19,480 bases of DNA from a virus (lineage: Duplodnaviria > Heunggongvirae > Uroviricota > Caudoviricetes). The DNA is taken from the IMG/VR virus record IMGVR_UViG_2648501130_000004. One strand, written 5' to 3'. The notes under the pieces are model-generated. The model was not told where the DNA came from, did not search any database, and worked only from the letters and a program-made list of their open reading frames with translations. A program made the position numbers and the translations under genes. Numbering within the stretch: the stretch's first letter is position 1; every line of letters begins with the position of its first letter. This document shows, piece after piece, positions 1,225 to 7,935 of this stretch.

Positions 1225-1480
1225 CAGCTTGCGTAGCCCTGACAGTCTGTTTTGAGCGAACAGTGGACATTTTCAATGGCATTCTTGAGTAGGTTACGCT
1301 TAGACCAGAAGTAAGAGGTGATAGAATTATCAACAATACATAAAACATAGGGGATCCTTATTGATTTATTGATCTTGACCAACTTATGTGATGCAGTATG
1401 TCTTTAACTTGTATTACTATTATCTTTATCTTTATCTTGTTGTTTCTAATAAACTTATCTTATTTCAGAAAGGAGTTTTT

Positions 1481-3181
1481 ATGCATTTAGTCACGAAATC
1501 TTATTTCGATGCCTTTTGCAAAGCATTCGCTGCGCCCTATGAGGAGACCAAAAATTTTGAGGCGTTTGTGAACTATTGTGCTTTTTCAAAATACTCAGGC
1601 GACAAAGTTGAGGTCAGTGATCTTGTGTATGAAGGCCCGGACCCTGGTATTGATGGAGCATTTTTATTTTTAGACGACAGAGCCATTTTTTCAACTGAAG
1701 AACTTCAGGAGATTTTCCAAAACTCACGTCGCGAGTTTCAAGTTTCATTAGTATTCACGCAAGCTAAGTCATCGGAGAAGTGGAGCAAACAGGAAATAGA
1801 CTCTTACATTGCGTCAATAAGAGATTATCTTTCACCAGCGCCACAACAACCCCACAGTGAATATCTAGCGGACTTTAAAAAAATGTTCAACTTGATATTT
1901 GCTAATATCGGCAGAGTCAAAAATGGCCTTCCAGACTTATACGCATATTTTTTTAGTGCTGCACAAAATACAGAGGCCAGAGAAATAAAAGCTGCATTTG
2001 CATCGGGTGAAAAAAGCTTAAAGTCACTCGGGTTTTCACATGAAACATCCTTCATTATGGCTCACAAAGACATGATTCATGAGCTTTGGCTTGCTGCGGA
2101 AGGTCCAATAGAAGCTAAACTTCCTACAATAGGCTATGCTCCATTCCCAGCGGCCCCTAATATTAATAATGCCTATGTAGCTACAGTCAAAGCTCGTAGT
2201 TTTATTGATTCTATACTTAAAGACAAAAATGGAAACCCTCGAAAAAAATTATTCGAAGAAAATGTTAGAGATTTTCTGGGAATTGATGGTGACGTAAATT
2301 CAGAAATTGCAGGAACACTAGATACTGATGGAAAAAAAGCAAGATTTGGTTTAATGAATAATGGAGTGACAATAGTTGCATCAAGCGTGAGGCCTGCAGG
2401 GCAAGAAATTTTTATACGAGATTTTCAAATTGTTAATGGATGTCAAACGTCTAATGTTCTTATATCAAAAGACATTCAAGTAGATGAATCAGTTAGTTTA
2501 ATGATTAAATTAATTGAAACCGATGAGCCAGCGATCCTTGATGACATTGTACGAGCTACGAATAGACAATCTAAAGTTGAAGATGCACAGTTCATTTCAA
2601 CGCTAAAAAAATTAAGGGAATTAGAACATTATTTTAATGCTAAAGGTGCTATTGAAGGAAATAAAATTTATTTTGAGAGAAGAAAGGGGCAGTATAGTTC
2701 AGAAAGTATAGCTCCAGTACGCATATTTGATATCAGAGAAGTTGCGCGAGCATATGCTGCTATTGTTATGATGAGACCAGATTATTCCAGTCGTTATCCA
2801 AATAGGTTAACTGGTGACTTACTTAATGAGGTTTTCTCTTCCGATGCCCTCGAGGATGATTATTATATATCTTGCTATTGCTTGTATAGGCTAAAGGCTC
2901 TTATCTCAAATAAGAGGTTTGATGGGAAGTATTCAAAATTACGCTGGCATATTCTAACTGCTGCGTCAAAATACTGTGGTAATAATTATAAGGCTTGGGG
3001 GTTCAAAAATAAAAATGAAGCTCTTCATAACTTATTCTCAATGAATGATGGGGAGTGGTTTGAAAAACTTGAGAGTTTAGTAAAAATAGCTATACCAGAT
3101 CCGGATATTTCTCGAGACTTACTAAAGTCGCAGCCTTTAACATCAACGATTCTCAAAAGTGTTGATAGCGTACCTAAATAA
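1481..3181 (+). CDS. Large AT-rich accessory protein, candidate abortive-infection/defence protein (AIPR-like, tentative)
   Basis: ORF track gives 1388..3181; the likely start is ATG 1481 preceded by AAAGGAG. GC about 28-38 percent in sampled lines versus 50-60 percent in the backbone. Central FQIVNGCQTSNV motif that I associate with the AIPR family. No Walker A motif seen. Confidence 0.6.
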   Translation: MHLVTKSYFDAFCKAFAAPYEETKNFEAFVNYCAFSKYSGDKVEVSDLVYEGPDPGIDGAFLFLDDRAIFSTEELQEIFQNSRREFQVSLVFTQAKSSEKWSKQEIDSYIASIRDYLSPAPQQPHSEYLADFKKMFNLIFANIGRVKNGLPDLYAYFFSAAQNTEAREIKAAFASGEKSLKSLGFSHETSFIMAHKDMIHELWLAAEGPIEAKLPTIGYAPFPAAPNINNAYVATVKARSFIDSILKDKNGNPRKKLFEENVRDFLGIDGDVNSEIAGTLDTDGKKARFGLMNNGVTIVASSVRPAGQEIFIRDFQIVNGCQTSNVLISKDIQVDESVSLMIKLIETDEPAILDDIVRATNRQSKVEDAQFISTLKKLRELEHYFNAKGAIEGNKIYFERRKGQYSSESIAPVRIFDIREVARAYAAIVMMRPDYSSRYPNRLTGDLLNEVFSSDALEDDYYISCYCLYRLKALISNKRFDGKYSKLRWHILTAASKYCGNNYKAWGFKNKNEALHNLFSMNDGEWFEKLESLVKIAIPDPDISRDLLKSQPLTSTILKSVDSVPK

Positions 3182-6141: not shown

Positions 6142-6504
6142 TTAACGACCTGCTGCGCGGAGTTTTCCGTCAGGTTCACCGGCAAGAGTCAGTAATTGTC
6201 CCTGGTCTTCCTGCAGAATAGTCAGGCGACCACCGCGATTGACATACATCGGCGTTTCGGTGGTGTCTTCTTCGGAAATTTTCCCGCGGTTAGTCGGGCG
6301 AACATATGAGAGTTTGTGTTTGATTTTTACACGGTTCTCATCAAACGGTTCGATTTCCAGGTTGAGCGAGACCTTACCTTTGGTTTTCGTGTTCATCACA
6401 CCGGAAGCGACTTCACTGAGAACAGCGCCGATTTTGGTTTCAAATACGCCGCCGTCCAGCTCCCCGATAAATGCCTGCACATCAGTACTGCGTTCGCTAG
6501 CCAT
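6142..6504 (-). CDS. YfdP-like small phage protein (function unknown)
   Basis: ORF track extends to 6735, but the credible start is ATG 6504 (MASERSTDVQ...) preceded by GAGGAG, giving 120 aa; the upstream extension is GC-rich leader with no RBS. Confidence 0.65.
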   Translation of the reverse strand: MASERSTDVQAFIGELDGGVFETKIGAVLSEVASGVMNTKTKGKVSLNLEIEPFDENRVKIKHKLSYVRPTNRGKISEEDTTETPMYVNRGGRLTILQEDQGQLLTLAGEPDGKLRAAGR

Positions 6505-6649
6505 TTTGCTGCTCCTCATCATATCGACCCTGCAAGGTCGGTTGGTTTCTCCACAAAACAGAGAAGAACACCTGCGGTGGCAGCCGCCCGGATGGATTGG
6601 GTTATGAGCCCGTCGTCCGGTGATGCCCTTCTCTGTTTTGTAAAAAGAG

Positions 6650-6698
6650 CGGTACCAGCCGGAAGCAAGTGTACAAACTGGTACCGCCAAAGCAGTGG
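6650..6698 (-). terminator. Intrinsic terminator inside the pL leader (tL-like)
   Basis: On the minus strand GCGGTACCAG-(19 nt loop)-CTGGTACCGC, a perfect 10-bp stem, followed by UCUUUUUA. Confidence 0.5.
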
Positions 6699-7104
6699 CT
6701 GTTGTGGTGGGGTTGTCACTCAGGCGTATGGTCAACCTGACAATCCGGTGTCCTCAACGGGGAAAGAGTAACCCCGCCATACTTACCGCCGCGCCATTTC
6801 GCGGATTACCACAACGCTGAGAGCACTTAGCCAGTTACGGCACCACACTTTGTCGCGGTTCCATAAATGCCCTCATCGTTGCACCCTGGTCTCTTCCCAG
6901 GCGTCAAACCGGATCGCCACGCTGGTTAGGCGTCTTATCAGCATCATCATTGACTTGCACATTCCGGCTACCTGGTTTGTTTGCCCGAGCAAGGAGTGGA
7001 TTGTCCCCTTTAACGTCCCCAGACCGCTAACGACGCATGTGCCATACGCCGTGTTACAACCAAATTTAGTTTAATCTTGCCTGTGTTATGTTTCTTTTAG
7101 ATAC

Positions 7105-7132
7105 ATTATGTATCTCAAGGGTACATTGTCAA
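7105..7132 (-). promoter_or_regulatory. pL-like early-left promoter (TTGACA - 16 bp - CATAAT) overlapped by a perfect palindromic operator AGATACA-tta-TGTATCT (7099..7115)
   Basis: Minus-strand -35 TTGACA at 7132..7127 and -10 CATAAT at 7110..7105; sits directly downstream of the cI terminator, as lambda pL/oL sits relative to cI. Confidence 0.5.
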
Positions 7133-7134
7133 GT

Positions 7135-7158
7135 ATAAAAAAACCTGCCGAAGCAGGT
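7135..7158 (-). terminator. Intrinsic terminator of the cI transcript
   Basis: Minus-strand hairpin ACCTGC-ttcg-GCAGGT followed by a run of about 8 U, 13 nt after the cI stop. Confidence 0.7.
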
Positions 7159-7170
7159 TATAAATATTGA

Positions 7171-7845
7171 TTAGGCCTTTATTTTGTATCTTCTTGGTTT
7201 TCCCGAGAAAATCACTGTACCAATTATAGAGCAATTACCGTTAATCTTAATGTAAGGCTCAGGCCAGTTTGGGTTTAATGCTTTGAGATAACGCTGTGTT
7301 CCATCTTCTATCAATCGCTTGAAGGTGGTTTCGCCTGTATCGTGCATCAATGCAATAACGTCGTCACCGTGGCAGGCAGGGACTTCGGGATCAACAAAAA
7401 TCATGTCTCCAGGGCGGTACTCATCAATCATTGAATCACCAATCACCCGCAAGATATAAGTCATTTCGCCACAGGGTACAGGGCAGGGGTAAGTTTCTGC
7501 TGTGCTCAAATCAACCTCAGAATAGCCAACTTCTTTCCATGCTCCGGCCTGTACCCATGATATGACAGGGACTAACGTTATTTGTTTGTTAGTGATTGAA
7601 ACATCAGGTTTTTTTGTGATGTTCGTGGTCTGGTGTTCTTGATCAAGCCATCCGACAGGCAGGTCGAAACATTTTTCGATGTGCCGCGCCATGCTGTCAC
7701 CGATATTTTTAGTAGCACCATCTCCCATAAACCTGCTGGTCTGGGTTGGCTCGCGATCAATCATGGTGGCAAAGGAAGAATTCCCGCCAACACCATCTCT
7801 CAGTTTTCTGGCGTTAGACCGCCGGATGTCATGGATTGTTTTCAT
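7171..7845 (-). CDS. CI-like prophage repressor (N-terminal HTH, C-terminal S24 LexA-type autopeptidase domain)
   Basis: 224-aa ORF; C-terminal LRVIGDSMIDEYRPGDMIFVDPE... is characteristic of S24 peptidase repressors; divergent from cro. Confidence 0.88.
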   Translation of the reverse strand: MKTIHDIRRSNARKLRDGVGGNSSFATMIDREPTQTSRFMGDGATKNIGDSMARHIEKCFDLPVGWLDQEHQTTNITKKPDVSITNKQITLVPVISWVQAGAWKEVGYSEVDLSTAETYPCPVPCGEMTYILRVIGDSMIDEYRPGDMIFVDPEVPACHGDDVIALMHDTGETTFKRLIEDGTQRYLKALNPNWPEPYIKINGNCSIIGTVIFSGKPRRYKIKA

Positions 7846-7935
7846 AACGAAATTAAAACCTTTGTACCGATAAGGTACAAGTATCTTGAAGGTTCATTTC
7901 AATCATGTAATATGTATATCGGAGGTACATATTGT
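7846..7935. promoter_or_regulatory. Immunity-region operator/promoter (OR-like): inverted repeat TTGTACC-gataa-GGTACAA (7862..7880) plus candidate PR (TTGAAG 7886..7891, 16 bp, TAATAT 7908..7913)
   Basis: 90-bp divergent intergenic region between the cI and cro starts; palindrome and promoter hexamers read directly from the sequence. Confidence 0.5.

Follow-up and report, generated by a model that had tools for sequence, protein, structure and literature searches.

Site-level operator map of an SfV/Ayreon-type immunity region in which one dyad family probably serves both operators

Genes, promoters and terminator of the immunity region

We analyzed the immunity region in a 19,480-nt stretch of tailed-phage DNA (Caudoviricetes, IMG/VR record IMGVR_UViG_2648501130_000004); the whole stretch is called the window. 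The region is of the lambda type, in agreement with the preliminary description, and has a cI gene whose product carries an S24 domain, a divergent cro, a right operator (OR), a leftward promoter with its operator (pL/OL) and a cI terminator abutting pL. The genes and transcription signals are as follows.

7171..7845, minus strand: cI repressor gene, 224 aa; N-terminal DNA-binding domain and C-terminal S24 LexA/UmuD-type autopeptidase; annotated repressor/cI in Ayreon
7936..8136, plus strand: cro, 66 aa, HTH; annotated in relatives; PHROG 35 transcriptional repressor, E 3e-15
7105..7132, minus strand: pL; -35 TTGACA (7132..7127), 16-bp spacer, -10 CATAAT (7110..7105); 11/12 match to consensus; a promoter in the Ayreon annotation
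7886..7913, plus strand: predicted PR; -35 TTGAAG (7886-7891), 16-bp spacer, -10 TAATAT (7908-7913); from conserved blocks
7852..7880, minus strand: predicted PRM; -35 TTGTAC (7880..7875), 17-bp spacer, -10 TTTAAT (7857..7852)
7135..7159, minus strand: cI intrinsic terminator; hairpin 7159-7142 AACCUGC-UUCG-GCAGGUU, U7 at 7141-7135

The divergent cI (minus strand) and cro (plus strand) genes are separated by 90 bp. CI matched Pfam Peptidase_S24 over residues 93-212 (E 1.5e-26), and its translation carries Ala100-Gly101, Ser138 (GDSM) and Lys176 (FKRL), an Ala-Gly site and a Ser/Lys dyad predicted to serve self-cleavage. Pfam gave no match for the N-terminal domain. The profile of this domain matched SPC32H Rep (5d50_A) with an E value of 1.3e-10, the match ending at residue 76, and hhalign of the same profile with an approximate sequence of the 434 repressor domain gave no significant match. 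A single-sequence AlphaFold model of the domain had a pLDDT of 61, falling below 50 in the helix-turn-helix part. When the domain alone was used in a protein search, only fragments of the same protein were returned, two of which led to homologous, non-independent loci. The Pfam match of Cro was YdaS_toxin/HTH_3-like and lay below the curated cut-offs.

The pL promoter was invariant among relatives. The predicted PR matched the consensus at only 8 of 12 positions and was not called by the promoter scan; its assignment is based on the conserved blocks CTTG....GGTTCA...TGtA..aT and on the equivalent in a Pseudomonas phage, TTGACG-17-CATCCT. On the other strand, a T.TAAT block lies 6 nt from the cI ATG in nearly all relatives, and TGGAAT occupies the same distance in the Pseudomonas phage. 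Because the PRM -10 is only 6 nt from the ATG, a leaderless cI mRNA is implied; no Shine-Dalgarno sequence was found upstream of cI in the window sequence. From this layout we infer PRM, the leaderless cI start and the -43 geometry given below.

The cI terminator, which had been placed immediately before pL, proved to be real. Its hairpin and U-tract folded at -12.3 kcal/mol (z = -5.2), a stability that none of 200 shuffles reached, and it lies directly upstream of pL. The stem is kept by compensatory changes in relatives (CCTGCC..GCAGG, CCCGCT..GCGGG, CCCGCA..GCGGG). An Rfam scan of 6400-8200 detected no RNA family.

The feature is ordinary and essentially already known, and what the analysis yields is a site-level operator map. 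Phage Ayreon was 100% identical to the window over 6900-8200 and covers only 74% of the window overall. In SfV and SfIV, phage cdtI, Stx2c phages and Ayreon, CI was 98.7-100% identical to CI here and the cI-cro DNA 95.5-100% identical. The SfIV CI, 100% identical to CI here, is also 100% identical to that of SfV (PMC3851460). The OR region differed from SfV at 2 positions, both outside the half-sites. Taken at the level of sequence, the near-identity of CI, Cro and the operator region implies homoimmunity within the SfV-type group. The SfV GenBank entry U82619 labels the equivalent of 7862-7930, which corresponds to the first through third OR sites, "putative operator region" and includes the cI terminator, and the Ayreon annotation includes pL and the terminator. 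No operator definitions for this immunity type were found in the SfIV, epsilon34 and Ayreon-announcement papers, and a text search for TGTACC returned a primer only.

Operator sites and their conservation

The preliminary description had singled out two palindromes, TTGTACC-GATAA-GGTACAA at 7862-7880 and AGATACA-TTA-TGTATCT at 7099-7115, and had taken them as distinct dyads that suggested two regulators or relaxed specificity. Both positions were exact, and the second in fact extends to a perfect palindrome of 8+1+8, AGATACAT-T-ATGTATCT. Perfect palindromes with 7-nt arms are common in this DNA (31 in the window versus 15.4 +/- 3.4 in random sequences), so palindromes alone prove nothing, and their significance comes from clustering and conservation. 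We found that both palindromes are made of the same hexamer half-site, GGTACA/TGTACC; once it is recognized, the apparent two-dyad anomaly disappears. The short TGTA/TACA motifs, correctly noted earlier as recurring at OL and OR, turned out to be the key to this single-family reading. The dyad consists of 6-bp half-sites with centres 11 bp apart around a spacer that is not sequence-constrained, and one 17-bp family, TGTACC-N5-GGTACA, probably serves both the left and the right operators. The sites, predicted operators to which no strand is assigned, are listed below.

7863..7879: OR3-like operator, TGTACC-GATAA-GGTACA; perfect dyad, 0 mismatches; weight-matrix score 20.0; overlaps the predicted PRM -35 and spacer
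7880..7896: OR2-like operator, AGTATC-TTGAA-GGTTCA; degenerate, 3 mismatches; weight-matrix score 12.1; PR -35 (TTGAAG, 7886-7891) inside
7913..7929: OR1-like operator, TGTATA-TCGGA-GGTACA; 2 mismatches; top weight-matrix score, 23.0; abuts the PR -10
7109..7125: operator OL1, TGTATC-TCAAG-GGTACA; 1 mismatch; weight-matrix score 19.2; fills the pL spacer
7089..7105: candidate operator OL2 (weak), TGTTTC-TTTTA-GATACA; 3 mismatches; weight-matrix score 9.8, about the random maximum

The canonical dyad is thus not limited to OR, since OL1 carries it with one mismatch. The OR palindrome first described consists of the PRM-overlapping operator 7863-7879 and a single flanking base at either end. The OL palindrome arises where two sites meet: OL2 contributes its right half and OL1 its left half, 3 bp apart around the pL -10 (ATTATG on the plus strand). 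The site at 7913-7929 covers the predicted PR start and the cro Shine-Dalgarno sequence GGAGG, the centre of 7880-7896 lies at about -43 of the predicted PRM start, and OL2 overlaps both the final base of the pL -10 and the start site of pL.

A pattern search for TGTACC-N5-GGTACA with up to 3 mismatches over 19.5 kb gave 10 matches, five of which fell in two control regions of ~100 bp, clustering in ~1% of the window. A weight matrix trained on OR sites of the 16 divergent loci only, with no OL sites in the training, ranked the sites in the window in the order 7913, 7863, 7109, 7880 and 7089, and the next best match elsewhere scored 8.3. The maximum in random sequences averaged 9.5, the highest being 17.7. 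The sole perfect dyad in the window (7863-7879) sits on PRM, which is opposite to the lambda affinity order if consensus match predicts affinity. Two further candidates were rejected: an extended symmetry of 19-25 bp at 7913-7929 (inverted repeat 7903-7916/7926-7939), whose flanks were asymmetric in most relatives, and an additional site at 7132-7135 (GTAT, 11 bp to the right of 7121), which was not conserved in relatives.

Conservation was assessed in 96 enterobacterial loci, comprising 16 divergent loci (CI 73-88% identical) and 80 homoimmune prophages. The latter were obtained by an IMG/VR scan with the N-terminal domain alignment; being near-identical, they were of no use for divergence and were used for population variation. 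Among the 16 divergent loci, column identity at 7863-7879 was 0.99 for the half-sites versus 0.50 for the spacer, and at 7109-7125 it was 0.96 and 1.00 for the half-sites versus 0.51. The sequence TGTAYC-N5-GGTACA abutted the pL -35 in 91 of the 96 loci. At 7880-7896, GGTTCA was invariant and AG..C was kept in all relatives, and the 7913-7929 operator was conserved as well. The right half of OL2 was conserved (0.99), whereas its left half (0.68) was no better than the spacer (0.66). In the 80 homoimmune prophages the substitutions occurred in the spacers (GATAA/GTTAA/GATAG/GCTAA; TCAAG/TCAAA/TCATG and others), while the half-sites were fixed. More distant homologues with different recognition helices had different dyads, such as TTAGC-N5-GCTAA.

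Of the two palindromes originally proposed, the OR dyad is conserved in relatives and the exact OL palindrome is not. The latter was present in 3 of the 96 loci and is lineage-specific. It is rare because the left arm is GGTACA, not GATACA, in most loci: the window shares GATACA with cdtI, 2H10 and Stx2c phages, whereas GGTACA is found in SfV and most prophages. The TTA at the centre of the palindrome belongs to the pL -10, which is why it does not vary.

The same motif was found in Pseudomonas phage vB_Pae_BR133a. Over CI residues 1-71 the N-terminal domain of its repressor is 59% identical and shares the REPTQxSR helix; its Cro is 33% identical, and its repressor likewise has an S24 C-terminal domain. 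Unlike the window, this phage has a different host, its remaining DNA is unalignable, and its OL is separated from the repressor gene by two additional genes. The repressor-cro interval contains three sites (coordinates in L115).

8862-8878: equivalent of 7863-7879, TGTACC-AGAAA-TGTACA; first site, 17 nt from the repressor start codon, as in the window
8878-8894: equivalent of 7880-7896, AGAACC-TTGAC-GGTACA; middle site, with the -35 inside
8913-8929: equivalent of 7913-7929, TGTACC-CAGGA-GGTACA; 3 nt before cro, with the Shine-Dalgarno sequence inside

At its leftward promoter we found GGAACC-AAGAA-GGTACA, with one good half, and AGTACC-TTAAA-GGTACA-TTGTCAA, whose closing TTGTCAA is shared with the window. 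The OL site abuts TTGACA, as OL1 adjoins the pL -35 in the window, but the OL sites are 33 bp apart and their half-sites 16 nt apart instead of 3, and the 15-mer found around the pL -10 is lacking. As the comparison shows, the operators go along with Cro and the N-terminal domain of the repressor, forming one module from Enterobacteriaceae to Pseudomonas phages. In Ralstonia phage Hennie a single AGTATC-AACTA-GGTACA lies 15 nt upstream of a 41%-identical homologue; we gave it little weight because the recognition helix differs.

Alternative readings of the palindromes

At this window size and composition about 15 perfect palindromes with 7-nt arms are expected, and the ones at issue might be chance products of AT-rich promoter DNA. 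We find this scarcely credible, since the comparative data already contradict it: conservation of the half-sites extends over 96 loci, an unrelated Pseudomonas phage has the motif too, and the five sites cluster in ~1% of the window. It is also very improbable that the palindromes are nucleic-acid hairpins, such as an attenuator or terminator before cI, and not protein-binding sites. In the terminator scan a weak terminator-like hairpin (7880-7862, minus strand) with AGGTTTTAAT after it was indeed flagged, but the arms are invariant without compensatory changes while the loop varies freely, the mark of a protein site rather than an RNA stem. Compensatory changes are seen in the genuine terminator at 7142-7159, and the same dyad occurs where a hairpin would have no sensible role, within the spacer of pL and over the start of PR.

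Another reading, essentially the idea of the preliminary description, holds that the 15-bp head-to-head dyad at pL (GGTACA-TTA-TGTAYC, 7100-7114) is a distinct site, recognized by Cro or CI with another dimer geometry or by a second regulator, so that pL would be controlled separately from PR. The 15-mer GRTACATTATGTAYC occurs in 89 of the 96 related loci, its left half-site (GGTACA, 7100-7105) is ~99% conserved though the canonical 17-mer partner of that half-site is weak, and a similar GGTACA-TAT-TGTATG is present at 7924-7938. Both arms, however, are the half-site hexamer of the 17-mer and so give no different specificity, and the part that does not vary at their centre is the pL -10 hexamer. 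Conservation does not extend to the copy at 7924-7938, where relatives have GGTACATATTATGAAAG or similar, and there is no other conserved copy in the window. In the Pseudomonas phage the spacing of the OL half-sites departs from this arrangement, and the half-site centres at pL are 9 bp apart as against 11, a spacing unsuited to a dimer whose geometry is fixed. A recurring and conserved second dyad with a half-site of its own was thus not seen; the OL arrangement has one conserved copy only and is absent from the Pseudomonas OL. We consider this reading unlikely.

It is also conceivable, if rather improbable, that the three half-sites at pL (GGTACA-3 bp-TGTAYC-5 bp-GGTACA, in 89-91 of the 96 enterobacterial loci) form a real functional unit. 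The half-site 7109-7114 would then be shared by an 11-bp-spaced dimer site and a 9-bp-spaced head-to-head site, and CI and Cro, or two modes of CI, would compete for mutually exclusive registers. If true, such competition for a shared half-site would give pL a left-operator logic unlike that of lambda.

The reading that we prefer, with a probability of about 80%, makes this a CI/Cro switch of standard lambdoid design, belonging to the SfV/Ayreon immunity type and using a single operator family, TGTACC-N5-GGTACA.

A putative CI/Cro switch in comparison with lambda and SPC32H

Binding by CI and Cro is inferred here, as are the affinities, the activation of PRM, cooperativity and the leaderless start. 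At 7109-7125, and perhaps at 7089-7105, dimers of CI would occlude pL, while CI at 7913-7929 and 7880-7896 would block the start and the -35 of PR. With its centre at about -43 relative to the predicted leaderless PRM start, 7880-7896 would be suitably located for activating PRM in the manner of lambda OR2. Lying on PRM itself, 7863-7879 may allow shut-off by CI at high concentration or by Cro, which presumably reads the same sites as CI. Induction would occur by RecA-stimulated autocleavage of the S24 domain of CI.

The result is an operator map of the SfV/Ayreon/cdtI/Stx2c immunity type, which has the consensus TGTACC-N5-GGTACA, with three sites at OR and one or two at OL. Possible uses are the prediction of homoimmunity among Stx2c and cdt-converting prophages or help in designing reporter constructs. 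The map has little importance beyond annotation, and no new regulatory principle is indicated.

The region resembles lambda in its divergent cI and cro, in a CI with an S24 autopeptidase C-terminal domain, in the terminator after the cI transcription unit, in three related 17-bp dyads at OR with related ones at OL, and in an operator overlapping PRM. In lambda, OR2 lies about 42-43 bp upstream of the leaderless PRM start, a position resembled here by the operator at about -43 of the probably leaderless predicted PRM start. It differs from lambda in operator sequence (TGTACC-N5-GGTACA versus the TATCACCGCCAGTGGTA type), in the centre-to-centre spacing of the OR sites (17 and 33 bp versus 23-24 bp) and in the number of recognizable OL sites (two versus three). 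The OL-OR distance is only ~0.8 kb, without rexAB, the N-terminal domain of CI has no sequence relationship to its lambda counterpart, and CII is of the CP76 type. Unlike lambda, SfV and SfIV have no reported N or cIII (PMC3851460).

SPC32H Rep (PDB 5D50) is similar to CI here in its Rep-type N-terminal DNA-binding domain. PMC9638917, citing Kim et al. 2016, describes a C-terminal domain of Rep that tetramerises and an antirepressor that inactivates Rep. A C-terminal domain of that type, a tetramerising non-protease targeted by an antirepressor, is not what CI here carries, its own being an S24 autopeptidase. The recognition-helix residues of SPC32H Rep and CI also differ, and a different operator is therefore expected for Rep.

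A probable single operator family at OL and OR

The preliminary description had reported different palindromes at the left and right operators, and a cI terminator immediately before pL. Both palindromes and the terminator were confirmed in the sequence, and the OL palindrome was actually a perfect repeat of 8+1+8.

Features of the immunity region (window coordinates)
7099-7115: OL palindrome, AGATACA-TTA-TGTATCT
7132..7105, minus strand: pL, a sigma-70 promoter, TTGACA-16-CATAAT (11/12 match)
7159-7142, minus strand: cI terminator hairpin, AACCUGC-UUCG-GCAGGUU, then seven U (7141-7135); folding -12.3 kcal/mol, z -5.2
7171-7845, minus strand: cI, 224 aa, Peptidase_S24 domain at residues 93-212
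7862-7880: OR palindrome, TTGTACC-GATAA-GGTACAA
7936-8136, plus strand: cro, 66-aa HTH protein

The terminator hairpin lies 12 nt past the cI stop codon and pL comes directly after it; both are also annotated in the record of Escherichia phage Ayreon. Perfect palindromes with 7-nt arms are not rare as such (31 in the window against ~15 expected), so the argument must rest on placement and conservation. The OL palindrome is made up of two arms, GATACA (7100-7105) and TGTATC (7109-7114), with 3 bp between them, the former being the right half of a weak site at 7089-7105 and the latter the left half of a strong site at 7109-7125, while its middle is the pL -10 hexamer (ATTATG, 7105-7110). We searched the window for TGTACC-N5-GGTACA and scored it with a weight matrix trained solely on OR sites of divergent loci.

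Operator 17-mers (mismatches to the pattern; weight-matrix score)
7863-7879, OR: 0; 20.0
7880-7896, OR: 3; 12.1
7913-7929, OR: 2; 23.0
7109-7125, OL: 1; 19.2
7089-7105, OL: 3; 9.8

These sites were five of only 10 pattern matches in 19.5 kb. The best matrix score elsewhere in the window was 8.3, and the maxima in random sequence had a mean of 9.5 and a top value of 17.7. The pattern match and the score of an OR-trained matrix at 7109-7125 indicate that the canonical OR dyad is present at OL too. The earlier suggestion that there are two operator families, or two regulators, failed its defining test, and the apparent anomaly is explained by the half-site that OL and OR share. The PerC-like protein that had been named in that context is encoded past the replication genes by an ORF of 164 aa (10605-11099, plus strand; PerC-family domain at residues 100-151), and the pattern and weight-matrix scans of the window found no operator-like GTAC dyad near it. 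A 14-nt inverted repeat (7903-7916/7926-7939, 86% complementary) whose arms enclose the Shine-Dalgarno sequence of cro is operator 7913-7929 with symmetric flanks; the flank symmetry was absent from most of the aligned relatives.

Conservation of the operator in relatives

A scan with one genome per species gave a divergent set of 16 loci from other Enterobacterales (CI 73-88% identical), and a scan of IMG/VR gave a homoimmune set of 80 prophages in which the N-terminal domain of CI is identical. When the regions cI-cro and cI-pL were aligned, the consensus was tGTAcC.....GGTACAAGt..CTTg..GGTTCAt.t...t..tGtA..aTGTA....GGAGGTACAt for OR and ggtacattaTGTA.C.....GGTACAtTGTCAA for OL, the repeating unit in both being the same 17-mer. 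Column identity in the divergent set was 0.99 in the half-sites and 0.50 in the spacer of 7863-7879, and 0.96 and 1.00 in the half-sites and 0.51 in the spacer of 7109-7125. Differences among the homoimmune prophages and close phage relatives likewise fell in spacers. Fixed half-sites around a free spacer, as seen in these alignments, are characteristic of an operator that is bound by a dimer and uncontacted at its centre. The exact OL palindrome occurred in only 3 of the 96 related loci, because GGTACA is the left arm in most of them.

An independent lineage was found in Pseudomonas phage vB_Pae_BR133a, whose DNA is unrelated to the window apart from the operator motif. Over CI residues 1-71 the N-terminal domain of its repressor shows 59% identity and shares the IDREPTQxSR helix, and it is also joined to an S24 C-terminal domain; the Cro homologue of this phage is 33% identical.

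Operator sites of vB_Pae_BR133a
Repressor-cro interval: TGTACC-AGAAA-TGTACA; AGAACC-TTGAC-GGTACA; TGTACC-CAGGA-GGTACA
Leftward promoter, ~1 kb past the repressor gene: GGAACC-AAGAA-GGTACA; AGTACC-TTAAA-GGTACA-TTGTCAA

As in the window, 17 nt separate the first site from the repressor ATG, the middle site contains the -35 (TTGAC; TTGAA in the window), the third contains the GGAGG of cro, and an OL site adjoins TTGACA. Homologues that are more distant and differ in the recognition helix had other dyads, such as TTAGC-N5-GCTAA, as expected if helix and operator co-vary. Just downstream of the repressor gene, the sequence of vB_Pae_BR133a (L027) carries two copies of a palindrome, CTGTATATACA(G/A), at 2029-2040 and 2075-2086, a motif distinct from the GTAC operators.

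It is quite unlikely that the head-to-head arrangement at pL, in which half-sites face each other across 3 bp (7100-7114), is functional in itself. The 15-mer GRTACATTATGTAYC was kept in 89 of 96 loci even though the left half of 7089-7105 was no better conserved than its spacer (column identity 0.68 vs 0.66), but the second head-to-head copy in the window (7924-7938) was not conserved among relatives, and the 15-mer is absent from OL of vB_Pae_BR133a since the two sites there are 33 bp apart. We attribute the conservation of 7100-7105, where GGTACA is nearly invariant, to an operator with one good half combined with the -10 hexamer; 7880-7896 and the second OL site of the Pseudomonas phage are parallels.

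Immunity type and neighbouring features

Ayreon was 100% identical to the window over 6900-8200, and phages cdtI, 2H10, SfV, SfIV and Stx2c-converting phages were 95.5-98.5% identical. Coverage of the full window by Ayreon is only 74%, which makes the source an Ayreon-like prophage or phage and not Ayreon itself. The immunity region is of the SfV type; the equivalent of 7862-7930 was labelled "putative operator region" in the SfV GenBank record in 2002, and a CP76-type CII-like gene comes after cro. It is an ordinary, essentially known feature, and what we infer here is the site-level operator map and the link to the Pseudomonas phage module. A mosaic joint was located at 7072-7075, 14 bp to the left of the OL sites: similarity of the mEp460 type stops at 7071, and from 7075 on the window resembles SfV, SfIV and the PhiR phages. 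The module seems to have been exchanged as a block with its boundary right at OL.

Rfam matches above the gathering score were obtained 1.2 kb right of OR for the Hfq-binding RNA isrK (9088-9164, plus strand, 58.9 bits) and the C4 antisense RNA (9189-9276, plus strand, 80.7 bits). Both lie within an Ash-family ORF (8728-9564) annotated "immunity region" in SfV and Ayreon; this long ORF may be over-called at that place. The 9088-9276 region appears to be a second module for immunity or antirepressor control, one based on RNA and similar in kind to P1/P7 immI or Gifsy IsrK. Directly beside the integrase gene (1-1224) is a gene for a 597-aa AIPR (abortive-infection) family protein (1388-3181, plus strand), probably a prophage-carried defence gene. 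Identical hairpins, AACCCGC-CACTGA-GCGGGTT, at 14510-14529 and 15187-15206, 677 bp apart, are probably duplicated terminators.

Predicted promoters and comparison with known switches

The best position for PR is TTGAAG (7886-7891)-16-TAATAT (7908-7913), a prediction that matches the consensus at only 8/12 positions and was not called by the promoter scan; it falls in conserved blocks and has a parallel in the Pseudomonas phage. Site 7880-7896 would cover its -35, and 7913-7929 its start and the cro ribosome-binding site. Upstream of cI, a conserved T.TAAT 6 nt before the ATG, TTGTAC 17 bp further upstream and the lack of a Shine-Dalgarno sequence before the ATG predict a weak PRM and a leaderless cI mRNA. 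At pL, 7109-7125 would cover the spacer, and 7089-7105 possibly the last -10 base and the start site. From the predicted pL start to the first leftward ORF of any size, ~575 nt (6523-7098, minus strand) held only tiny hypothetical gene calls, with no Rfam match and nothing annotated in other phages. A conserved block, GGCGGCTACTTCGTGGGCGTCCTGCC, occurs just downstream of pL in many relatives and is missing from the window; the stretch could be a leader RNA element.

In the CI translation, VQA100-G101 corresponds to the usual cleavage site and GDS138M and FK176RL to the usual Ser/Lys dyad. A Pfam search with the CI N-terminal domain (residues 1-76) gave no match. A profile of this domain matched two others, the one with which Rep of Salmonella phage SPC32H binds DNA (5d50_A, E 1.3e-10) and a CI domain from a phage (7nkv, E 3.5e-4). 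In Rep the homologous module is fused to an antirepressor-controlled tetramerisation domain, whereas in the window it is fused to an S24 autopeptidase, so that one DNA-binding module is found with either type of C-terminal domain. Every feature of a lambda-like switch that can be read from sequence was found, and on this basis the switch is predicted to work like lambda's. Cro would presumably use the same sites as CI, and induction would presumably proceed via RecA-stimulated self-cleavage of CI. Site 7863-7879, on the predicted PRM, would occupy an OR3-like position, and 7880-7896, centred at about -43 of the predicted PRM start, would correspond to OR2, whose activating position in lambda is near -43. 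The order of site strength is unlike that in lambda, as the only perfect dyad of the window is the one on the predicted PRM, with the PR-proximal sites imperfect. The equivalents of 7913-7929 and 7109-7125 are near-perfect as well in divergent relatives, and the SfV/Ayreon lineage may have tuned the strength of its sites.
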